Positions 39,781-64,000 of a stretch of DNA of 64,000 nucleotides are shown here, one piece after another (the first letter of the stretch is position 1; each line of letters starts with the position of its first letter). The position numbers were made by a program, and so were the translations under genes. The stretch comes from Escherichia coli (GTDB lineage: Bacteria > Pseudomonadota > Gammaproteobacteria > Enterobacterales > Enterobacteriaceae). Location of the stretch: assembly GCF_001677475.2 (NCBI RefSeq), contig NZ_CP015229.1. One strand, written 5' to 3'. The notes under the pieces were generated by a model. That model saw only the letters and a program-made list of their open reading frames with translations, had not been told where the DNA came from and did not search any database.

Positions 39781-41514
39781 TTACTGATTACCTACCTGGT
39801 CGCCATACGGCAGCGTGTCGTAATCGATCAGCGCGTTTTTCTTGTACGGGTTACCAATCCAGCGGGTAGTTTCTTTGAACTGCGGATTCACCACTGAACG
39901 GGTTGGGTCGTAACCGTCGTAAGATAAGCCCGCCAAATCTGACCAGGTGTGGATCAGTTCCGCCAGGCTGTATTTACGATCAACATCCTGTGAGAAATCA
40001 CGCGGATGAGTCGCTTGCCATTTTTCCGACGTCCACAGCAGGAACGGAATGGTGTACATATGACGCGTCGGGTTGTCCTCATTACGCCCCTGAGTTTTGT
40101 GCGGCGGCGTGTCGTAAACCTCTTCACCGTGGTCAGAGAAGTAAACCAGGAAACCGTTCGGGTCTGCTGCTTTAAAGTCTTTAATCAGGCTGGCAACCAC
40201 ATGATCGTTATACAAGTTAGCGTTGTCATAATCGTTATATGACTCCAGTTCTTCTGCGCTTAATCCCGGCGGAACATGATCGGTATTGCCATCAAACTTG
40301 CCCTGATTTTCCGGGTAGCGGTATTTGTATTTGATATGCGTACCCAGCAGATGAACGATGATCAGTTTCTTCGGCGCAGGGTCATTCAGCACTTCCTGGA
40401 ACGGCTTCAGCACGTTGGTGTCGTATTCACGCGCACTCTGCGTACGTTGCTGGTTCATGTAGTACTGCTTGTCGGTCTGGCGCGAAAATACCGTCAGCAT
40501 GGTATTGCGGGCGGTCATCGTCTGCTGGTTGGTGATCCAGAAGGTTTTATAACCTGCCTGTTTCATCATGTTCATCAGCGACGGCTGTGTCAGATACAGG
40601 TCCGGGTTCTTTTCATTGGCAAAAGTCAGCGCCTGTTGCAGGATTTCAATGGTGTACGGACGAGACGTCACCACGTTATTAAACACGGTCAGATTCGGAT
40701 CGGTTTTATGCAGCGCATCCAGCTCCGGCGTGGTTTCACGCGGATAACCGTACAGACTCATGCGGCCACGCTGGGTCGACTCGCCAATCACCAGCACTAA
40801 AGTGCGCGGTTCGTTACCCGATTCATCTTTGAAATTCGCCAACGGCGGCAAGGCATTATTTTCATTCAGTAGCTTTGTTAGCGAGTTTAGTTGCTGACGA
40901 TACTGATAATAGCCGGTCAGGAATTGCCACGGTGCGGCAGGCTCCATACGCGATGCCAGGTTATCCAACGTTTTCTCAAACGGCTTGTTTTTGATAAACG
41001 TATTCATGGCGATCGGATGCAGAATCAAGCCATAAAGCAGGGCAAAAGAGACAACATAACGCCACGGCTTTGGAATATAGACCGGGCGCAGGCGTGTCCA
41101 CAGCAGAACTGCCACCGCCGTATAGGCCAGCGCGATAAGCACAATTTTCAGGCTGAAATACTGGCTTAAATACTCGCTGGCTTCGTTGGTGTTGGTTTCG
41201 AACATCACAAACAGAACGCTCTGCGAGAACTCCTGACCGTAGATGACGTAGTAGCACAGCGCCGCCAGAGAGGCCGCCCATAGCACCACGCCGATTACTG
41301 CGGCAATAATTTTAATCCGCTTCGGAAAGAGGAATACCGGGATCAACCACAGCGAACTGAATAACAGCGAGTCGCGAATGCCGTTAGTGCCACTATAACC
41401 ACTGATGTAAATAATGGCCTGTAGCAGAGTAGAGAAAAACCAAAAGTAGAGCAGTGCCCAACCCAGGGCTTTCCAGCTAAAAAGAGGTTTAGCCTGGACT
41501 TCTGTGGAATGCAT
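39781..41514 (-). CDS. eptC: Phosphoethanolamine transferase EptC (577 aa)
   Basis: MHSTEVQAKPLFSWKALGWALLYF...; N-terminal TM helices plus sulfatase-like domain; canonical start at codon 16 of ORF-track frame. Confidence 0.9.
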   Translation of the reverse strand: MHSTEVQAKPLFSWKALGWALLYFWFFSTLLQAIIYISGYSGTNGIRDSLLFSSLWLIPVFLFPKRIKIIAAVIGVVLWAASLAALCYYVIYGQEFSQSVLFVMFETNTNEASEYLSQYFSLKIVLIALAYTAVAVLLWTRLRPVYIPKPWRYVVSFALLYGLILHPIAMNTFIKNKPFEKTLDNLASRMEPAAPWQFLTGYYQYRQQLNSLTKLLNENNALPPLANFKDESGNEPRTLVLVIGESTQRGRMSLYGYPRETTPELDALHKTDPNLTVFNNVVTSRPYTIEILQQALTFANEKNPDLYLTQPSLMNMMKQAGYKTFWITNQQTMTARNTMLTVFSRQTDKQYYMNQQRTQSAREYDTNVLKPFQEVLNDPAPKKLIIVHLLGTHIKYKYRYPENQGKFDGNTDHVPPGLSAEELESYNDYDNANLYNDHVVASLIKDFKAADPNGFLVYFSDHGEEVYDTPPHKTQGRNEDNPTRHMYTIPFLLWTSEKWQATHPRDFSQDVDRKYSLAELIHTWSDLAGLSYDGYDPTRSVVNPQFKETTRWIGNPYKKNALIDYDTLPYGDQVGNQ

Positions 41515-41653
41515 AGTAAGAACCTGTCTTGAAAAAAATATCGCCGAATGTACCGACAATTCCTTAAGGATATCTGAAGGGATATCCAGAATTTGAATAA
41601 AATGCAGACAGAAATATATTGAAAACGAGGGTGTTAGAACAGAAGTATTTCAG

Positions 41654-41682
41654 AAAACCCTCGCGCAAAAGCGCGAGGGTTT
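41654..41682 (-). terminator. Rho-independent terminator downstream of ppc
   Basis: aaaaccctcgcgcaaaagcgcgagggttt perfect hairpin; minus-strand RNA followed by U-rich tract. Confidence 0.75.
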
Positions 41683-41696
41683 GCAGGAGAGGAAGA

Positions 41697-44348
41697 TTAG
41701 CCGGTATTACGCATACCTGCCGCAATCCCGGCAATAGTGACCATTAACGCCTGCTCGACGCGAGGATCCGGCTCATGGCCTTCTTTTTCTGCCTGGCGGG
41801 AGCGGTGCAGCAACTCGGCCTGCAATACGTTCAGCGGGTCGGTGTAAATATTCCGTAGCTGAATAGACTCTGCAATCCACGGCAGATCGGCCATCAGATG
41901 GGAATCGTTGGCAATCGCCAGCACCACTTTGATGTCTTCTTCTTGCAGATTGCGTAACTCTTTACCTAACGGCCACAGTGCTTTGTCTACCAGACGTTGA
42001 TCATAGTATTCCGCCAGCCACAGGTCTGCTTTGGCGAATACCATTTCCAGCATACCCAGACGCGTCGAGAAGAACGGCCAATCGCGGCACATAGCCTCCA
42101 GCTCGCTCTGTTTGCCGTCTTCGACCACTTTTTGCAGCGCCGTACCTGCACCCAGCCAGGCGGGGAGCATCAGGCGGTTTTGCGTCCAGGCGAAAATCCA
42201 CGGAATGGCGCGTAGTGACTCGACGCCGCCGGTTGGGCGACGTTTCGCCGGACGTGAACCCAACGGCAGTTTGCCCAGTTCTTGTTCCGGCGTAGCGGAG
42301 CGGAAGTAAGGCACAAAATCTTTGTTTTCACGTACGTAGCCACGGTAGAGATCGCAGGAGATGACTGACAGTTCATCCATAATGCGACGCCAGCTCTCTT
42401 TCGGCTCAGGTGGTGGCAGCAGGTTGGCTTCCAGAATCGCCCCGGTGTACAGCGACAGGCTGCTGACGGTGATTTCTGGCAGACCATATTTAAAGCGGAT
42501 CATCTCGCCCTGTTCAGTCACGCGCAGGCCACCTTTCAGGCTTCCTGGCGGTTGTGACAGCAGCGCCGCATGAGCAGGTGCGCCGCCACGACCAATGGAA
42601 CCGCCGCGACCGTGGAACAACGTCAGCTCAATACCCGCTTTTTCGCAGGTTTTGATTAATGCATCCTGTGCCTGATATTGCGCCCAGGAAGCTGCCATCA
42701 CGCCCGCATCTTTTGCTGAGTCGGAATAGCCAATCATCACCATCTGTTTGCCCTGAATCAGGCCGCGATACCAGTCGATATTGAGCAGCTGGGTCATGAC
42801 ATCGTTGGCGTTGTTCAGGTCATCGAGAGTTTCAAACAGCGGAGCAACCGGCATTGCAAACCCGATACCCGCTTCTTTCAGCAGCAGGTGGACAGCCAGC
42901 ACGTCGGACGGCGTTTTCGCCATCGAGATCACGTAGGCGGCAATGGAGCCTTGCGGCGCTTCGGCAATCACCTGGCAGGTATCGAGCACTTCGCGCGTTT
43001 CGGCGCTTGGTTGCCAGTTGCGCGGCAGAAGCGGACGTTTGGAGTTCAGTTCGCGGATCAGGAACGCCTGTTTGTCGGCCTCTGACCAGCTTTCGTAGTC
43101 GCCGATACCGAGGTAGCGGGTCAGCTCGCCCAGCGCTTCGGTATGGCGGGTGCTCTCCTGACGGATATCAATACGGACCAGCGGTACGCCGAAACATTTC
43201 ACGCGGCGCAGGGTGTCGAGCAGATCGCCGTTGGCGATAATACCCATGCCACACGCCTGAAGTGACTGGTAGCAAGCGTAGAGCGGTTCCCACAGTTCTT
43301 CGTTTTGTGTCAGCAGGCCTTCTGGTTTTGGCAGTTCTTCGCCTTTCAGGCGCGCTTCCAGCCATGCCTGTGTCGCCATCAGGCGAGAACGCAGGTTTTT
43401 CATCAGATAGCGATACGGTTCTGCGGCACCTTCTTCGCCAACCAGCGCCAGCAGTTCAGGGGTCGCTTCAACCATCGACAGTTCAGAAACCAGCACCTGA
43501 ATATCTTTCAGGAACAGATCGGTGGCTTTCCAGCGACTGAGCAGCAGGACGTGGCGGGTGATATCGGCAGTGACGTTCGGGTTGCCGTCGCGGTCACCGC
43601 CCATCCACGAGGTAAAACGGACCGGAACAAATTCGACGGGCAGTTTGTAGCCGAGATTCTCTTCCAGTTGTTCGTTCAGTTCGCGCAGGTAATTTGGTAC
43701 GCCTTGCCACAGGCTGTTTTCTACTACGGCAAAGCCCCATTTGGCTTCATCTACCGGGCTTGGACGCAGCTTACGGATTTCATCGGTATGCCATGACTGG
43801 GCGATCAACTGGCGCAGGCGGCGCATCAGCTGGTTGTGTTCGTAGTCAGCGATATCTTTGTTATCGAGCTGTTTTAAACAGGCGTTCACTTCCACCATTT
43901 TGTGGATCAGCGTACGACGGGTAATTTCGGTTGGGTGAGCCGTGAGGACCAGTTCCAGCGACAGCGATTCCACTGCTTTTTTGATGGTGTCTTCGCTCAG
44001 TTCCGGCTGGTTTTTCAGTTTACGCAGGGTGCGGGCGATCACTTCCGGGTTGCTGGCAGCTTCGCCTTTCGGCGAAATGCTGTGGTATTGCTCGGCGGTG
44101 TTGGCCAGGTTCAGGAACTGACTAAACGCACGCGCAACGGGCAGCAGCTCGTCGTTCGACAAATTTTGTAAGGTGGTGAGCAACTCCTGGCGGTTAGCAT
44201 CATTGCCAGCGCGTGAAGATTTGGACAACTTACGGATAGTTTCTACGCGTTCAAGAATGTGTTCTCCCAACGCATCCTTGATGGTTTCTCCCAGCACTTT
44301 GCCGAGCATACTGACATTACTACGCAATGCGGAATATTGTTCGTTCAT
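41697..44348 (-). CDS. ppc: Phosphoenolpyruvate carboxylase (883 aa)
   Basis: ORF 883 aa recognised as Ppc ([29 protein letters not shown]). Confidence 0.96.
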
Positions 44349-44676
44349 ATTACCCCAGACACCCCATCTTATCGTTTGATAGCCCTGTATCCTTCACGTC
44401 GCATTGGCGCGAATATGCTCGGGCTTTGCTTTTCGTCGTCTTTTATAAAGCCACGTAAAAGCGGTGACGTCAAATGCTGCGAAATCGCTTCAGCAAACGA
44501 ATAAATAGCAGGAATTTACGTCATTAAATTCACGACGCTTTAAATAAGCGTAACTTATGGGAATGTTAAAAAATCGCCTCAAGTAACACCAAAGAGTTAT
44601 GAGTTGTAGTTACCATTTGGGCAATCATCTGAGATTGCTGACAAACTCGTTTACGGGTCAGTATGGGCACGGTTTT

Positions 44677-44716
44677 CCCCTCACCCTAACCCTCTCCCCG
44701 AAGGGGCGAGGGGACT
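44677..44716. repeat. GC-rich imperfect palindromic element in ppc-argE intergenic region
   Basis: cccctcaccctaaccctctcccc-gaa-ggggcgaggggac; stem cctctcccc / ggggcgagg; resembles a dispersed E. coli intergenic repeat family, exact family not assigned. Confidence 0.45.
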
Positions 44717-44760
44717 GTCCGTGCGCTTGCATGGCTTTGTCATCAGCCTGATTTGCTTTT

Positions 44761-45912
44761 TTAATGCCAGCAAAAATGATGAATTACCTGGGTTATCAGT
44801 TCGCGGGTGGGCTTGATAAACCGTGTTTCCAGATATTCATCAGGCTGATGAGCCTGATTAATTGAGCCAGGGCCCAGAACCAGCGTCGGGCATAACGTTT
44901 GAATAAACGGCGCTTCGGTACAGTAATTCACCACTTCGGTCTTTGCTCCGAGCAATTTCTCAACTACTTCAACCAGTTGATGATTTGGCGGGCATTCATA
45001 GCCAGGGATCGGCGGATGCAGCTCGTCGACCGTCAGACGACCCGGCCAGCGTTCGCTCACCGGAGCCAGCGCATCGTTGAGTAGGCCATTAAGTTCATTG
45101 AGTGTCATGCCCGGCAGCGGACGAATATCCATATGCAACTCACAGCAAGCGCAGATACGGTTAGCCGCGTCGCCGCCGTGAATATGACCGAGGTTAAGCG
45201 TGGGGTAAGGCACGGTAAATGCCTCATAGTGATAGCGTTCTTTAAGATTGTCACGCAGTTGCAGGATATGACCGATGGCGTCGTGCATCAGTTCGATAGC
45301 GTTAACTCCGCGTGCTGGATCGCTGGAGTGGCCCGACTGGCCCTGAATACGGATGGCGTTAGAGATATGACCTTTATGTGCGCGTACCGGTTGTAGTGAC
45401 GTCGGTTCGCCAATGATGGCGCAATCCGGGCGCAGGGCGGTAGTTTCGGCAAAATAACGCGCTCCGGCCATACTGGTTTCTTCATCGGCAGTCGCCAGAA
45501 TGTAGAGCGGTTTTTTCAGTTTCGTGACGTCGACATCGCGTAGCGCATCAAGGATAAACGCAAAAAAGCCTTTCATGTCGGCGGTGCCTAAGCCGTAAAG
45601 CTTGCCGTCATGCTCCGTCAGTGTAAACGGATCGCGCGTCCAGCGTCCGTCATCAAATGGCACCGTATCGGTATGCCCCGCCAGCAACAAGCCGCCAGCC
45701 CCCTGTCCGGTACTTGCCAGCATATTAAATTTGTTGCGAGTTCCTGGCACAGGCTGCACTTCCACATTGAAGCCTAAATCTTTAAACCAGTCCGCCAGCA
45801 GAGTGATTAAATCTGCATTGCTTTGATCGAGTGCCTCTTCCGTGGCGCTTATTGAAGGTGTGGCAATCAGAGCACGGTAAATCTCGATAAATGGCGGTAA
45901 TTTGTTTTTCAT
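44761..45912 (-). CDS. argE: Acetylornithine deacetylase (383 aa)
   Basis: [23 protein letters not shown]...; M20 peptidase family; canonical start at codon 14 of ORF-track frame. Confidence 0.93.
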
Positions 45913-46065
45913 TGTTGACACACCTCTGGTCATGATAGTATCAATATTCATGCAGTATTTATGAATAAAAATACACTAACGTTGAGCGTAATAAAACCCA
46001 CCAGCCGTAAGGTGAATGTTTTACGTTTAACCTGGCAACCAGACATAAGAAGGTGAATAGCCCCG
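45913..46065. promoter_or_regulatory. argE / argCBH divergent promoter region with ARG boxes
   Basis: AT-rich block aatattcatgcagtatttatgaataaaaatacact containing TGAAT...ATTCA-type ArgR operator half-sites. Confidence 0.6.
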
Positions 46066-47070
46066 ATGTTGAATACGCTGATTGTGGGTGCCAGCGGCTA
46101 CGCTGGCGCAGAGCTAGTGACCTATGTAAATCGCCATCCGCATATGAACATAACCGCTTTGACTGTTTCAGCGCAAAGCAATGATGCGGGAAAGTTAATC
46201 TCCGATTTGCATCCGCAGCTAAAAGGCATCGTTGATCTGCCGTTGCAGCCGATGTCGGATATCAGCGAGTTTAGCCCAGGGGTGGACGTGGTGTTTCTCG
46301 CCACCGCCCATGACGTTAGCCACGATTTAGCGCCGCAATTTCTTGAAGCCGGCTGCGTGGTGTTCGACCTTTCCGGCGCGTTTCGTGTTAACGACGCCAC
46401 CTTCTATGAAAAATATTACGGCTTTACCCATCAGTATCCGGAACTGCTGGAACAGGCAGCCTACGGTCTGGCCGAGTGGTGCGGTAATAAATTAAAAGAA
46501 GCGAACTTGATTGCGGTGCCAGGCTGTTATCCGACGGCGGCACAGCTGGCGCTGAAACCGTTGATAGATGCCGATCTTCTTGACCTCAATCAGTGGCCGG
46601 TGATCAACGCCACCAGCGGCGTGAGCGGTGCAGGACGTAAGGCAGCGATTTCAAATAGTTTTTGTGAAGTTAGCCTGCAACCGTATGGCATCTTTACCCA
46701 TCGCCATCAACCAGAGATCGCCACACACCTCGGTGCTGACGTTATCTTCACCCCGCATCTGGGCAATTTCCCGCGCGGCATTCTCGAAACCATTACCTGC
46801 CGCCTGAAATCGGGTGTGACCCAGGCGCAAGTCGCGCAAGTGTTACAGCAGGCGTATGCCCATAAACCGCTGGTGCGGCTGTATGACAAAGGCGTTCCGG
46901 CGCTGAAAAATGTCGTTGGGCTGCCATTTTGCGATATCGGGTTTGCCGTTCAGGGCGAGCATCTGATTATTGTGGCGACCGAAGACAACTTACTGAAAGG
47001 CGCGGCGGCACAAGCGGTACAGTGCGCCAATATTCGTTTCGGCTATGCGGAAACGCAGTCTCTTATTTAA
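46066..47070 (+). CDS. argC: N-acetyl-gamma-glutamyl-phosphate reductase (334 aa)
   Basis: ORF 334 aa, [20 protein letters not shown]-binding N-terminus. Confidence 0.95.
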
Positions 47071-47077
47071 GGGTGCA

Positions 47078-47854
47078 ATGATGAATCCATTAATTATCAA
47101 ACTGGGCGGCGTACTGCTGGATAGTGAAGAGGCGCTGGAACGTCTGTTTAGCGCACTGGTGAATTATCGTGAGTCACATCAGCGTCCGCTGGTGATTGTG
47201 CACGGCGGCGGTTGCGTGGTGGATGAGCTGATGAAAGGGCTGAATCTGCCGGTGAAAAAGAAAAATGGCCTGCGGGTGACGCCTGCTGATCAGATAGACA
47301 TTATCACCGGAGCACTGGCGGGAACGGCAAATAAAACCCTGCTGGCATGGGCGAAGAAACATCAGATTGCGTCCGTAGGTTTGTTTCTCGGTGACGGCGA
47401 CAGCGTCAAAGTGATCCAGCTTGATGAAGAGTTAGGCCATGTTGGACTGGCGCAGCCAGGTTCGCCTAAGCTTATCAACTCCTTGCTGGAGAACGGCTAT
47501 CTGCCGGTGGTCAGCTCCATTGGCGTAACAGACGAAGGGCAACTGATGAACGTCAATGCTGACCAGGCAGCGACGGCGCTGGCGGCAACGCTGGGCGCGG
47601 ATCTGATTTTGCTCTCCGACGTCAGTGGCATTCTCGACGGCAAAGGGCAACGCATTGCCGAAATGACCGCCGCGAAAGCAGAACAACTGATTGAGCAGGG
47701 CATTATTACTGACGGCATGATAGTGAAAGTGAACGCGGCGCTGGATGCTGCGCGCACGTTGGGCCGTCCGGTAGATATCGCCTCCTGGCGTCATGCGGAA
47801 CAGCTTCCGGCACTGTTTAACGGTATGCCGATGGGTACGCGGATTTTAGCTTAA
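47078..47854 (+). CDS. argB: Acetylglutamate kinase (258 aa)
   Basis: [20 protein letters not shown]; canonical ATG 47078 eight nt after argC stop. Confidence 0.93.
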
Positions 47855-47914
47855 GTTTTGTTAGCCGGAGGCGCAGCTTTCCGGCATTGAATTTCAAAAT
47901 AAGGAAACAGAGTT

Positions 47915-49288
47915 ATGGCACTTTGGGGCGGGCGTTTTACCCAGGCAGCAGATCAACGGTTCAAACAATTCAACGACTCACTGCGTTTTGATTACCGTCT
48001 GGCGGAGCAGGATATTGTTGGCTCTGTGGCCTGGTCCAAAGCCCTGGTAACGGTCGGTGTGCTGACCGCAGAAGAACAGGCGCAACTGGAAGAGGCGCTG
48101 AACGTGCTGCTGGAAGATGTTCGCGCCAGGCCACAACAAATCCTTGAAAGCGACGCCGAAGATATCCATAGCTGGGTGGAAGGCAAACTGATCGACAAAG
48201 TGGGTCAGTTAGGCAAAAAACTGCACACCGGGCGTAGCCGTAATGATCAGGTAGCGACTGACCTGAAACTGTGGTGCAAAGATACCGTTAGCGAGTTGCT
48301 GACGGCTAACCGGCAGCTGCAATCGGCGCTGGTGGAAACCGCACAAAACAATCAGGACGCGGTAATGCCAGGTTACACTCACCTGCAACGCGCCCAGCCG
48401 GTGACGTTCGCTCACTGGTGTCTGGCGTATGTTGAGATGCTGGCGCGCGATGAAAGCCGTTTGCAGGATGCGCTTAAGCGTCTGGATGTCAGCCCGCTAG
48501 GCTGTGGCGCGCTGGCGGGAACAGCCTATGAAATCGACCGTGAACAGTTAGCAGGCTGGCTGGGCTTTGCTTCGGCGACCCGTAACAGTCTCGACAGCGT
48601 TTCTGACCGTGACCACGTGCTGGAACTGCTTTCTGCTGCCGCTATCGGCATGGTGCATCTGTCGCGTTTTGCTGAAGACCTGATCTTCTTTAACACCGGC
48701 GAGGCGGGGTTTGTGGAGCTTTCTGACCGCGTGACTTCCGGTTCATCATTAATGCCGCAGAAGAAAAATCCGGATGCGCTGGAGCTGATTCGCGGTAAAT
48801 GCGGTCGGGTGCAGGGTGCGTTAACCGGCATGATGATGACGCTGAAAGGTTTGCCGCTGGCTTACAACAAAGATATGCAGGAAGACAAAGAAGGTCTGTT
48901 CGACGCGCTCGATACCTGGCTGGACTGCCTGCATATGGCGGCGCTGGTGCTGGACGGCATTCAGGTGAAACGTCCGCGTTGCCAGGAAGCGGCTCAGCAG
49001 GGTTACGCCAACGCCACTGAACTGGCGGATTACCTGGTGGCGAAAGGCGTACCGTTCCGCGAGGCGCACCATATTGTTGGTGAAGCGGTGGTGGAAGCCA
49101 TTCGTCAGGGCAAACCGCTGGAAGATCTGCCACTCAGTGAGTTGCAGAAATTCAGTCAGGTGATTGACGAAGATGTCTATCCGATTCTGTCGCTGCAATC
49201 GTGCCTCGACAAGCGTGCGGCAAAAGGCGGCGTCTCACCGCAGCAGGTGGCGCAGGCGATTGCTTTTGCGCAGGCGCGGTTGGGGTAA
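47915..49288 (+). CDS. argH: Argininosuccinate lyase (457 aa)
   Basis: [26 protein letters not shown]; fumarase/aspartase family signature [12 protein letters not shown]. Confidence 0.96.
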
Positions 49289-55862: not shown

Positions 55863-56963
55863 TTACTTCGCGGTCAGTAATACGCCGCACTCCATATGGT
55901 GCGTGTAGGGGAACTGATCAAACAGAGCCAGACGTTCGACCTTGTGCGTCTGGCTTAATGTTTCCAGATTCTTGCATAACGTTTCCGGATTGCAGGAGAT
56001 ATACAGAATACGTGGATACGCCTGCACCATTTTCTCGGTTTCACTGTCCAGACCGCTGCGCGGTGGGTCGACAAAAATGGTTTCGCACTGATAACTCTTT
56101 AAGTCGATCCCTTGCAGGCGGTTAAACTCGCGCACACCATTCATCGCCTGAGTAAATTCTTCTGCCGCCATACGAATAATTTGTACGTTATCAATATGGT
56201 TAGCGGCAATGTTGTATTGCGCAGCAGCAACCGACGGCTTAGCGATTTCGGTGGCTAATACCCGATCAAAATTGCGCGCCAGTGCTAATGAAAAGTTACC
56301 GTTGCCGCAGTACAGCTCCAGTAAATCGCCTTTTGAGCCTTTGGTTACGTCCAGCGCCCATTCCAGCATCTGAATATTCATCGCCGCGTTCGGCTGGGTA
56401 AAGCTGTTTTCTACCTGACGGTAGATCATCTCTTTCCCTGCGACCGGCAGACGTTCATCGATGTAATCTTGATCCAGCTCGATTTTGGTTTTCGTTGCCC
56501 GACCAATCAGATGCACATTCAGATTCTGCGCTCGCAGTGCATCGCGCAGGGCTTCCGCTTCCTGACGCCACTCATCATCCAGCTTTTTATGGTACAGCAG
56601 GGAAACCACCGCCTGATTACTCAACGTAGTGAGGTAATCAATCTGGAACAACTTGTGGCGCAGAACGGGATTATTACGCACACCCGCAATCATCGCCGTC
56701 ATCAACTGGTTGATGAGTTCACTGGCAGCGGGGAAGCTATCCACGCGGATGCGGCTTTTGGTTTGTTGATCGAAAATGATGTGGTACAGGTCATCGCCAT
56801 CGTGCCAGATGCGGAACTCCGCGCGCATCCGGTAATGACTGACCGGCGAGCGAAACACTTCCGGAACCAGGTCAGAAAACGGTGCCATCATACTTTGCAA
56901 ACGTACCACTTTTTCGGCTAACTGCGCTTCATACTGTTCTGTTGGAAGGTGTTCGGGGGTCAT
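55863..56963 (-). CDS. trmA: tRNA (uracil54-C5)-methyltransferase (366 aa)
   Basis: ORF 366 aa recognised as TrmA ([29 protein letters not shown]). Confidence 0.94.
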
Positions 56964-57090
56964 GATGTATCCTGAAAAATTAAAGTACGCGGCGATTGTA
57001 GGGATTGCTCATCAGATGTCCAGATCTTGATGAATTCCTATTTGTGAGCTACGTCTGGACAGTAACTTGTTACAACCTGTAGCATCCACT

Positions 57091-57331
57091 TGCCGGTCCT
57101 GTGAGTTAATAGGGAATCCAGTGCGAATCTGGAGCTGACGCGCAGCGGTAAGGAAAGGTGCGATGATCGCGTTATGCGGACACTGCCATTCGGTGGGAAG
57201 TCATCATCTCTTAGTATCTTAGATACCCCTCCAAGCCCGAAGACCTGCCGGCCAACGTCGCATCTGGTTCTCATCATCGCGTAATATTGATGAAACCTGC
57301 GGCATCCTTCTTCTATTGTGGATGCTTTACA
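57091..57331 (+). promoter_or_regulatory. btuB 5' leader containing adenosylcobalamin riboswitch
   Basis: Leader matches the btuB riboswitch as recalled (gccggtcctgtgagttaatagggaatccagtgcgaatctggagctgacgcgcagcggtaaggaaaggtgcg...gaagacctgccggcc B12-box region). Confidence 0.85.
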
Positions 57332-59176
57332 ATGATTAAAAAAGCTTCGCTGCTGACGGCGTGTTCTGTCACAGCCTTTTCCGCTTGGGCACAGGATACC
57401 AGCCCGGATACTCTCGTTGTTACTGCTAACCGTTTTGAACAGCCGCGCAGCACTGTGCTTGCACCAACCACCGTTGTGACGCGTCAGGATATCGACCGCT
57501 GGCAGTCGACCTCGGTCAATGATGTGCTGCGCCGTCTCCCTGGTGTGGATATCACCCAAAACGGCGGTTCAGGTCAGCTCTCATCTATTTTTATTCGCGG
57601 TACAAATGCCAGTCATGTGTTGGTGTTAATTGATGGCGTCCGCCTGAATCTGGCGGGGGTGAGTGGTTCTGCTGACCTTAGTCAGTTCCCTATTGCGCTT
57701 GTCCAGCGTGTTGAATATATCCGTGGGCCGCGCTCCGCTGTTTATGGTTCAGATGCAATAGGCGGGGTCGTGAATATCATCACGACGCGCGATCACCCCG
57801 GAACGGAAATTTCAGCAGGGTGGGGAAGCAATAGCTATCAGAACTATGATGTCTCTACACAGCAACAACTGGGGGATAAGACACGGGTAACGCTGTTGGG
57901 CGATTATGCCCATACTCATGGTTATGATGTTGTCGCCTATGGTAATACCGGAACGCAAGCGCAGCCAGATAACGATGGTTTTTTAAGTAAAACGCTTTAT
58001 GGCGCGCTGGAGCATAATTTTACTGATGTCTGGAGCGGCTTTGTGCGCGGCTATGGCTATGATAATCGTACTAATTATGACGCATATTATTCTCCCGGCT
58101 CGCCGCTGGTCGATACACGTAAACTCTATAGCCAAAGTTGGGATGCCGGACTGCGCTATAACGGCGAACTGATTAAATCACAACTCATTACCAGCTACAG
58201 CCATAGCAAAGATTACAACTACGATCCGCATTATGGTCGTTATGATTCGTCCGCGACGCTCGATGAGATGAAACAGTACACCGTCCAGTGGGCAAACAAT
58301 GTCATCGTTGGTCACGGTAGTATTGGTGCGGGTGTCGACTGGCAGAAACAGACTACGACGCCGGGTACAGGTTATGTTGAGGATGGATATGATCAACGTA
58401 ATACCGGCATCTATCTGACCGGGCTGCAACAAGTCGGCGATTTTACCTTTGAAGGCGCAGCACGCAGCGACGATAACTCACAGTTTGGTCGTCATGGAAC
58501 CTGGCAAACCAGCGTCGGTTGGGAATTCATCGAAGGTTATCGGTTTATCGCTTCTTATGGTACGTCGTACAAGGCACCTAATCTTGGGCAACTCTACGGC
58601 TTCTACGGTAATCCGGATCTGAACCCTGAGAAAAGCAAACAGTGGGAAGGGGCGTTTGAAGGCTTAACCGCTGGAGTGAACTGGCGTATTTCCGGATACC
58701 GTAACGATGTTAGTGACTTGATCGATTACGATGATCACACCCTCAAATACTACAATGAAGGGAAAGCGCGAATTAAGGGCGTCGAGGCGACCGCCAATTT
58801 TGATACCGGACCGCTGACGCATACGGTGAGTTATGATTATGTCGATGCGCGTAACGCGATTACCGACACGCCGTTGCTACGTCGCGCTAAACAGCAGGTG
58901 AAATATCAGCTCGACTGGCAACTGTATGACTTCGACTGGGGTATTACTTATCAGTATTTAGGCACTCGCTATGATAAGGATTACTCATCTTATCCTTATC
59001 AAACCGTTAAAATGGGCGGTGTGAGCTTGTGGGATCTTGCGGTTGCGTATCCGGTCACCTCTCACCTGACAGTTCGTGGTAAAATAGCCAACCTGTTCGA
59101 CAAAGATTATGAGACAGTCTATGGCTACCAAACTGCAGGACGGGAATACACCTTGTCTGGCAGCTACACCTTCTGA
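57332..59176 (+). CDS. btuB: TonB-dependent vitamin B12 outer-membrane transporter (614 aa)
   Basis: [38 protein letters not shown] (signal peptide plus TonB box DTLVVTA); C-terminal ...SGSYTF. Confidence 0.96.
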
Positions 59177-59978
59177 ACCACGTCCCACCGTGCTGGTGTT
59201 TGACTCCGGCGTCGGTGGGTTGTCGGTCTATGACGAGATCCGGCATCTCTTACCGGATCTCCATTACATTTATGCTTTCGATAACGTCGCTTTCCCGTAT
59301 GGCGAAAAAAGCGAAGAGTTTATTGTTGAGCGAGTGGTGGCAATTGTCACCGCGGTGCAAGAACGTTATCCCCTTGCGCTGGCTGTGGTCGCTTGCAACA
59401 CTGCCAGTACCGTTTCACTTCCTGCATTACGCGAAAAGTTCGACTTCCCGGTTGTTGGTGTCGTGCCGGCGATTAAACCTGCTGCACGTCTGACGGCAAA
59501 TGGCATTGTCGGATTACTGGCAACCCGCGGAACAGTTAAACGTTCTTATACTCATGAGCTGATCGCGCGTTTCGCTAATGAATGCCAGATAGAAATGCTG
59601 GGCTCGGCAGAGATGGTTGAGTTGGCTGAAGCGAAGCTGCATGGCGAAGATGTTTCTCTGGATGCACTAAAACGTATCCTACGCCCGTGGTTAAGAATGA
59701 AAGAGCCGCCAGATACCGTTGTATTGGGTTGCACCCATTTCCCTCTACTACAAGAAGAACTGTTACAAGTGCTGCCAGAGGGAACCCGGCTGGTGGATTC
59801 TGGCGCAGCGATTGCTCGCCGAACGGCTTGGTTGTTAGAACATGAAGCCCCGGATGCAAAATCTGCCGATGCGAATATTGCCTTTTGTATGGCAATGACG
59901 CCAGAAGCTGAACAATTATTGCCCGTTTTACAGCGTTACGGCTTCGAAACGCTCGAAAAACTGGCAGTTTTAGGCTGA
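59121..59978 (+). CDS. murI: Glutamate racemase (285 aa)
   Basis: [40 protein letters not shown]; 5' end overlaps btuB 3' end by 56 nt in a different frame. Confidence 0.94.
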
Positions 59979-60000
59979 TTTGGTTGAATGTTGCGCGGTC

Positions 60001-60060
60001 AGAAAATTATTTTAAATTTCCTCTTGTCAGGCCGGAATAACTCCCTATAATGCGCCACCA
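60001..60060 (+). promoter_or_regulatory. rrnB P1 promoter with AT-rich UP element
   Basis: -35 TTGTCA (60024-60029), 16-bp spacer, -10 TATAAT (60046-60051), GC-rich discriminator GCGCCACC; AT-rich UP element 60001-60020. Confidence 0.9.
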
Positions 60061-60142: not shown

Positions 60143-60180
60143 TTGACTCTGTAGCGGGAAAGCGTATTATGCACACCCCG
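60143..60180 (+). promoter_or_regulatory. rrnB P2 promoter
   Basis: -35 TTGACT (60143-60148) and -10 TATTAT (60166-60171). Confidence 0.85.
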
Positions 60181-60351: not shown

Positions 60352-61893
<1,542 letters not shown>

Positions 61894-61978
61894 CCTTAAA
61901 GAACTGTGCTTTGCAGTGCTCACACAGATTGTCTGATAGAAAGTGAAAAGCAAGGCGTCTTGCGAAGCAGACTGATAC

Positions 61979-62054
61979 GTCCCCTTCGTCTAGAGGCCCA
62001 GGACACCGCCCTTTCACGGCGGTAACAGGGGTTCGAATCCCCTAGGGGACGCCA
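61979..62054 (+). tRNA. gltT: tRNA-Glu (anticodon UUC) in 16S-23S spacer
   Basis: GTCCCCTTCGTCTAGAGGCCCAGGACACCGCCCTTTCACGGCGGTAACAGGGGTTCGAATCCCCTAGGGGACGCCA; cloverleaf with TTC anticodon. Confidence 0.97.
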
Positions 62055-62247
62055 CTTGCTGGTTTGTGAGTGAAAGTCACCTGCCTTAATATCTCAAAAC
62101 TCATCTTCGGGTGACGTTTGAGATATTTGCTCTTTAAAAATCTGGATCAAGCTGAAAATTGAAACACTGAACAACGAAAGTTGTTCGTGAGTCTCTCAAA
62201 TTTTCGCAACACGATGATGAATCGAAAGAAACATCTTCGGGTTGTGA

Positions 62248-64000
<1,753 letters not shown>

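Follow-up and report, generated by a model that had tools for sequence, protein, structure and literature searches.

A cobalamin riboswitch, btuB and a conserved 56-nucleotide overlap with murI, with candidate murI expression signals inside btuB

The locus described here lies in a window of 64,000 nucleotides, by which we mean the whole stretch of DNA that was analysed. A cobalamin riboswitch, btuB and murI are all found on the plus strand at 56.9-60.0 kb, and the gene order (trmA, then btuB-murI, then rrn) is that of an Escherichia coli-type chromosome. The window aligns here without gaps to positions 4161692..4167499 of E. coli K-12 at 98.0% identity, and the K-12 annotation at the matching positions reads b3966 for btuB and b3967 for murI. 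The btuB start codon and the end of its stop codon agree base for base with that annotation. Our main reading is that the locus as a whole consists of a B12 riboswitch, btuB and a 56-nt murI overlap, with putative internal signals for murI, and we give it a probability of roughly 0.9. The btuB/murI junction was sampled from 80 Enterobacteriaceae species, and codon counts use 79, 80 or 81 sequences. The coordinates of all features are collected in Table 1.

Table 1. Genes, RNA elements and candidate signals at the btuB-murI locus (window coordinates).
Feature	Position	Strand	Remarks
trmA	55863..56963	-	upstream of the btuB leader
btuB sigma-70 promoter	57056..57085	+	-35 TGGACA 57056..57061, 18-nt spacer, -10 TAGCAT 57080..57085
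Adenosylcobalamin riboswitch aptamer	57077..57266	+	match to Rfam RF00174 (Cobalamin)
btuB 5' leader, 240 nt	57092..57331	+	start inferred as ATG 57332 minus the published leader length
B12 box AGCCCGAAGACCTGCC	57234..57249	+	exact match to AGYCMGNAGACCKGCC
RBS hairpin, 7 bp, GGCAUCC / GGAUGCU	57301..57326 (57301..57307 with 57320..57326)	+	lies over the ribosome-binding region of btuB, just 5' of the AUG
btuB CDS, TonB-dependent vitamin B12 outer-membrane receptor	57332..59176	+	614 aa; NCBIfam NF007926; collinear with K-12 b3966
Terminator-like hairpin, btuB codons 6-10	57348..57361	+	from a scan; falls within the attenuator published at +18..+48
Block of frozen synonymous sites inside btuB	59069..59120 (~52 nt)	+	candidate murI promoter, 5' UTR and translation-initiation region
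Extended -10-like motif TGGTAAAAT (TGn + TAAAAT)	59077..59085	+	btuB codons cgT GGT AAA AT
Upstream in-frame ATG of the murI ORF	59109..59111	+	not the conserved start
Weak Shine-Dalgarno-like GAG	59111..59113	+	7 nt before the murI ATG; putative function
murI CDS, glutamate racemase	59121..59978	+	285 aa; NCBIfam NF002034
btuB/murI overlap	59121..59176	+	BtuB 597-614 plus stop; MurI 1-18 plus part of codon 19, +1 frame
Ribosomal RNA operon	16S start 60352		downstream of murI

The predicted BtuB protein scores 1110.5 bits against NF007926 (cutoff 836) and 905 bits against TIGR01779 (cutoff 599.7), with residues 1-614 covered. Its C-terminus, ...SGSYTF, ends in an aromatic Phe whose codon is TTC in 79/79 sequences. 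The murI gene is an essential gene for the cell wall, and the MurI product matches NF002034 with 515.6 bits (cutoff 408) and TIGR00067 with 325.2 bits (cutoff 146.65) over residues 24-283. It differs at 2 residues over 285 amino acids from chain A of PDB 2JFN, a chain of 285 amino acids that begins with MATKLQ but represents a recombinant construct. The two catalytic cysteines, C92 and C204, are invariant in an alignment of 50 sequences that reaches down to 34% identity.

The btuB leader was the first riboswitch to be described, and the adenosylcobalamin riboswitch of E. coli btuB was reportedly characterized by Nahvi et al. in 2002. An Rfam scan of the leader returned a complete match to RF00174 (model positions 1-189 of 189) with a score of 86.0 bits and E = 1.3e-20, far above the gathering score of 31.5. 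RefSeq places a cobalamin riboswitch at the equivalent site in E. coli records. The B12-box pattern AGYCMGNAGACCKGCC, a consensus said to go back to Vitreschak et al. in 2003, has a single match in the 64-kb window, where 0.04 matches would be expected by chance. The full Rfam match and the exact B12 box bear out the original prediction that a leader of about 240 nt carries an adenosylcobalamin riboswitch with a B12-box region. The predicted length of the leader stands, whereas its start had been given as 57091, one base away from the position listed in the table. The conserved CCGG strand of P1 begins at 57093. The btuB promoter, which matches 9 of the 12 consensus positions in a consensus scan, is placed consistently with a 240-nt leader, and published btuB fusions span -240 to +99 (PMC11162775).

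Alignment of 80 orthologous leaders supports the same architecture. Little or no variation is seen in the B12-box region, a ACGUCGCA block, a UCGCG block and the -10 hexamer; positions 57232..57251 are conserved in 80/80 leaders with 57233 as the sole varying position, and TAGCAT is almost unchanged. When the structure derived from the Rfam model is laid over these leaders, 76.7% of the cells are paired, compared with 31-54% in slid controls. The core helices are paired in 97-99% of cases, and the peripheral helices align poorly. Fifteen pairs carry compensatory changes in which both sides are altered, although the support from covariation is modest, as the sequences are close and most pairs are invariant or vary on one side only. 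The minimum free energy (MFE) fold of the leader is as stable as those of shuffled sequences (z = 0.0), and folding of the single sequence is uninformative in this respect.

The match to the aptamer ends 65 nt 5' of the btuB ATG, and the ribosome-binding region is covered by a separate hairpin that appears in both the MFE and the centroid folds of the leader. All 7 of its base pairs are identical in 80/80 species, so that the hairpin is conserved without covariation. Adenosylcobalamin (AdoCbl) is known to inhibit ribosome binding at btuB (Nou and Kadner 2000, cited in PMC11162775), and the block of btuB translation by the riboswitch leads to Rho-dependent termination at +81..+210 of btuB (PMC11162775). 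Additional control of btuB is exerted by an attenuator at +18..+48 and by the sRNA OmrA (PMC11162775). For the K-12 leader, which is nearly identical, binding of AdoCbl and repression have been described (PMC11162775). The terminator-like hairpin in codons 6-10 and a reduced synonymous diversity in btuB codons 1-24 agree with these published signals in the coding region.

At the other end of btuB, the murI coding region begins before the btuB coding region has ended. The two share 56 nt (59176 - 59121 + 1) and are read in different frames, since (59121 - 57332) mod 3 = 1 and position 1 of each murI codon coincides with position 2 of a btuB codon. RefSeq annotates an overlap of 56 nt in K-12, HH97, strain 200177 and EC42405. 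An ATG is present at the homologous position in 80/80 species loci, and the overlap is exactly 56 nt in every one of them, with TGA as the btuB stop codon in 69/80 species and TAA in the remaining 11/80. The coordinates, the RefSeq records and the 80 species loci all confirm the proposal that the murI ATG at 59121 is located 56 nt inside btuB in another frame. The same length of overlap is found in a distant relative (L083/L084; 67% MurI identity, 40% GC) that keeps the order trmA, receptor and murI, and also in two E. coli strains with highly divergent btuB alleles.

Codon alignments provide strong evidence that the shared segment is constrained by both proteins. Within the overlap, synonymous diversity falls to 0.043 when the btuB frame is read and to 0.032 when the murI frame is read; averaged over each gene, the values are 0.48 and 0.46. 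No other 18-codon window is as low among the 597 in btuB or among the 268 in murI. The constraint in the two frames is about ten-fold, with a geometry that is fixed in Enterobacteriaceae and in at least one more distant relative. Invariant columns make up 38/56 of the segment. Wherever a btuB third position varies among the sequences, MurI is changed as well, as for CGG>CGA in btuB, which produces MurI G8E in 19 species, and the variation seen at murI third positions likewise always changes BtuB. With the two frames related by +1, hardly any base change is silent in both proteins, and the segment is nearly frozen as a consequence. The codon-level comparison across the 80 Enterobacteriaceae species yields a very strong dual-frame constraint and an invariant murI ATG, and it supports btuB and murI as a genuine overlapping gene pair. 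No conserved antisense ORF spans the overlap; on the minus strand, the stop-free stretch varies in length between 7 and 139 codons and shows no conservation.

Synonymous diversity is already reduced upstream of the murI ATG. The drop sets in abruptly near btuB codon 580 (59069), and codons 579-596 have a synonymous diversity of 0.138, which is below that of all 561 upstream 18-codon windows (minimum 0.23). At codons 129-146, where the BtuB amino acids are conserved to a similar degree, synonymous diversity is normal (0.54), and thus conservation of the protein is not the cause of the frozen block. As judged from codon-level comparison, this block is also unexplained by dual coding. Even E. coli strains with only 55-75% identity in the btuB body have the block at 100% identity, and the 60 nt that precede the murI ATG (59061..59120, which include the block) are 83% identical in the distant relative. 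The most invariant bases of the block read GTT CGT GGT AAA AT, with GTT in 79/79, CGT in 78/79, GGT in 79/79 and AAA in 78/79 sequences. These bases contain the extended -10-like motif TGGTAAAAT, at whose position the distant relative carries TGGTAGAAT; one or the other form is kept in this relative and in those species loci whose btuB frame is intact. The GAG that precedes the murI ATG is invariant in 79/79 sequences. Another promoter-like sequence inside btuB (58948..58975) was rejected as a murI promoter because its synonymous sites vary normally (0.45-0.60).

The simplest reading of these data is that murI probably has its own candidate promoter, TGGTAAAAT, and its own initiation region inside btuB. 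Three considerations lead us to this proposal: the shut-off of btuB by the riboswitch and Rho, the essential nature of murI, and the viability of a strain from which ~1000 bp at the 5' end of btuB, with the ATG, have been deleted and in which a resistance cassette may supply transcription (bioRxiv 10.1101/2025.12.01.691526). Expression signals for murI that are buried in btuB would explain why ~52 nt of synonymous sites are frozen upstream of the overlap. A full-text literature search for murI together with btuB found no report of a murI transcription start, and the SMRT-Cappable-seq supplements mention neither gene.

The most serious competing explanation is that murI is expressed only as part of an operon with btuB and has no promoter of its own, in which case the frozen 52 nt would act at the RNA level, as a standby site for ribosomes, as a region of translation initiation or in some other way. 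The pair has been treated as a single operon, and its transcripts are reported to rise ~300-fold in strains that have -35 and RBS mutations upstream of btuB (PMC10802341). In a scan, neither a terminator-like site nor a strong consensus promoter was found between the genes; moreover, TGGTAAAAT lacks a -35 hexamer and was not listed by a simple promoter scan. The murI start region (59088..59200) is predicted by MFE folding to be unstructured (z = +0.66), as would be expected for an initiation region, although this folding of a single sequence is uninformative. However, the early Rho termination within btuB that AdoCbl causes (PMC11162775) would cut off the essential murI gene, and the viable deletion of the 5' part of btuB likewise speaks against this explanation, with the reservation made above about the cassette. 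In addition, the frozen stretch is longer than a usual initiation region, and its most invariant bases read TGnTAAAAT. We consider that expression solely from the operon has a real but minority chance of being correct.

If murI does have its own promoter, the last ~110 nt of btuB would be compound in nature. Here 56 nt would be dual-coding, and ~52 nt would hold an extended -10 promoter and a leader that make murI independent of the riboswitch and of Rho. The frozen 3' end might also serve as the fixed right-hand boundary for the wholesale replacement of btuB barrel alleles that is observed among E. coli strains. We would give this composite model in its entirety an even chance.

The position of the murI start codon is clearer. 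ATG 59121 is invariant in 81/81 sequences and in the distant relative L083/L084, and the Tyr codon of btuB that supplies its AT is TAT in 79/79 sequences whereas TAC predominates at adjacent Tyr codons. Further downstream, none of the possible start codons is conserved across 80 sequences: GTG at codons 24 and 26 is found in 58-59/80 and TTG at codon 34 in 39/80. Because the first site is invariant and the downstream candidates are not conserved, we conclude on comparative grounds that the conserved murI start is 59121.

The overlap could nevertheless be an annotation artefact if MurI were to initiate past the btuB stop codon, near residue 24, so that the 56 nt would be btuB coding sequence and murI leader. 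Family models and distant homologues do begin near residue 24, residues 1-16 are predicted to be disordered, and viable Tn5 insertions in the overlap have led the authors of that work to propose an alternative start (bioRxiv 10.1101/2025.12.01.691526). We regard this possibility as very improbable. Conservation of the ATG demands a fixed TAT codon in btuB and extends beyond the Enterobacteriaceae sample, the downstream GTG and TTG codons are not kept, and btuB wobble positions are frozen over the entire 56 nt. The orientation bias of the Tn5 insertions fits expression driven by the transposon rather than a native alternative start. The alternative put forward with the original prediction, a murI start downstream and outside btuB, is consequently unsupported. 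Hardly credible at all is a start at the first ATG of the ORF (59109), which would give 289 aa and a 68-nt overlap and where the ORF list begins with an in-frame ATG in this window, given that the T it needs at 59110 occurs in 2/81 sequences (C in 79), that the btuB Tyr593 codon is TAC in 77/79, and that RefSeq annotates 285 aa.

With the start at 59121, the overlap encodes a lineage-restricted and probably disordered N-terminal tail of MurI that is located outside the racemase core. Racemase family models match MurI from residue 24 only. In a search of 1.84 billion representatives at 50% clustering, the alignments of more distant MurI relatives begin only at residues ~19-24, and these relatives have short and unrelated N-termini. 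An AlphaFold2 model of MurI has a mean pLDDT of 92.5, with values below 50 for residues 1-16. The MurI N-terminus is reportedly needed for activation by UDP-MurNAc-L-Ala, a result said to come from Doublet in 1996. When the window is compared with the distant relative, 12/18 residues are shared in the BtuB tail and 9/18 in the MurI tail. This pattern of conservation fits a history in which murI extended into a pre-existing and strongly constrained btuB 3' end. A TraDIS study found viable Tn5 insertions inside the overlap, with a 10-fold bias in their orientation (bioRxiv 10.1101/2025.12.01.691526), and if such insertions are tolerated, then the first 18 residues of MurI may be dispensable.

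Taken together with published work, these features suggest the following mechanism. A sigma-70 promoter would produce a btuB transcript whose 240-nt leader folds into the adenosylcobalamin riboswitch. When ligand is bound, the ribosome-binding site would be held in the conserved hairpin and translation of btuB would be blocked, whereupon Rho would end transcription early inside btuB, as has been published (PMC11162775). murI would start at ATG 59121 in the +1 frame, with 56 nt of btuB still to come, and the shared nucleotides would encode the last beta-strand of the BtuB barrel with its C-terminal Phe as well as an 18-residue, probably disordered, MurI tail. Since the riboswitch and Rho would otherwise starve the essential murI gene, we infer that the final ~100 nt of btuB hold separate signals for murI. 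The putative set comprises the extended -10-like TGGTAAAAT (59077..59085), followed by a short leader and a weak GAG Shine-Dalgarno sequence.

Both the riboswitch and the overlap are already known and annotated, as had been recognized at the outset: RefSeq carries the features in E. coli, and the overlap is discussed in the literature with regard to the Keio collection, from which btuB is missing due to the overlap with murI (bioRxiv 10.1101/2025.12.01.691526). The general understanding is unchanged, and what is added is quantitative in nature, namely a fixed 56-nt geometry, a constraint of about ten-fold and a conserved start at 59121. Something new might come only from the frozen block 5' of the overlap, which hints at how an essential gene might escape the riboswitch of its neighbour. 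This would be useful when btuB is engineered, be it for resistance to phages or colicins or for the uptake of B12, and murI must stay unharmed. Because murI is essential, the overlap complicates btuB knockouts.

The closest known system is the K-12 locus. Its btuB leader has the same location, the 240-nt length, the B12 box, the RBS hairpin and the published mechanism, and it differs from the leader described here by 1 mismatch, at 57168 in a variable loop, and in nothing else of substance. The K-12 b3966/b3967 pair is read in the same frames, and its overlap has 0/56 mismatches to the window. MurI differs from K-12 MurI by 2 residues (A66E and G262E). The btuB body in the window, in contrast, is 4.2% diverged from that of K-12 and has no match above 96.5% among 5,425 complete E. 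coli genomes.

Long overlaps between genes on the same strand, as discussed for prokaryotic overlaps of more than 30 nt, can arise by N-terminal extension of the downstream gene, a process called overprinting. The btuB/murI pair resembles such overlaps in that murI has a lineage-restricted, predicted disordered N-terminal extension inside the conserved 3' end of btuB, and likewise in that the BtuB frame is better conserved than the MurI frame over the longer distance. Many long annotated overlaps are mispredictions of the start codon. Unlike those, the btuB/murI overlap has an invariant start and a measurable constraint in both frames.

The btuB alleles, which encode the B12 receptor, are strongly divergent between E. 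coli strains across the body of the gene (57432..59031). Relative to the window, the barrel-coding region of strain 200177 retains about 75% identity, and that of strain EC42405 only about 55%. The first 100 nucleotides of btuB and its last ~145 nucleotides (59032..59176) are 96-100% identical to the window in both strains. The barrel between these fixed ends looks like the product of a cassette-type replacement. The allele carried by the window has no match above 96.5% among 5,425 complete E. coli genomes.

The searches of the complete E. coli genome collection each matched 5,425 of its 5,426 members in all three cases, and none of these genomes reaches at least 99% identity to the window in the two regions checked (40000..48000 and 57000..60000). 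The best E. coli identities among complete genomes are 98.8% for the ppc-arg region and 97.7% for btuB-murI. The window is closest to E. coli, at about 98% identity versus 91-96% for the other Escherichia species and clade representatives fetched, which include E. albertii and E. whittamii.

Two of the fetched loci carry an interrupted btuB frame, with just 222 codons open ahead of the btuB stop in Intestinirhabdus alba and 55 in Citrobacter amalonaticus AUH_CA_2023_1. The 56-nucleotide btuB/murI junction and murI itself are intact in both. Either btuB has become a pseudogene there, or the assemblies contain errors. The window carries an extra in-frame ATG upstream of the conserved murI start. 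This triplet arises from a TAC-to-TAT change in the Tyr593 codon of btuB and is present in only 2 of 81 sequences. It could lead gene callers astray by yielding a MurI protein of 289 amino acids. Directly downstream of murI, a ribosomal RNA operon occupies 60352..64000 of the window.

Features near murI and in the adjoining rRNA operon (window positions)
Feature	Position	Comment
Extra in-frame ATG	59109..59111	12 nt upstream of conserved murI start
Strong promoter-like site	60024..60051	
Strong promoter-like site	60143..60170	
16S	60352..61893	
tRNA	61979..62051	
StyR-44	62132..62240	Rfam match, in rRNA operon spacer
23S	from 62248	

In the btuB leaders of five fetched loci (L027, L076, L029, L075 and L031), the cobalamin riboswitch has repeat insertions in its variable loop, which corresponds to ~57190..57200 in the window. 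Compared with 190 nucleotides in the window, the Rfam cobalamin match extends over 300-306 nucleotides in L027 and L076, and over 222-234 nucleotides in the other three. The insert-bearing leaders still give a full-length match to the Rfam model, with scores of 76-88 bits. Judged against the ERIC2 primer, the longer inserts look similar to ERIC elements; L076 includes AAGTAAGTGACTGGGATGAGCG.
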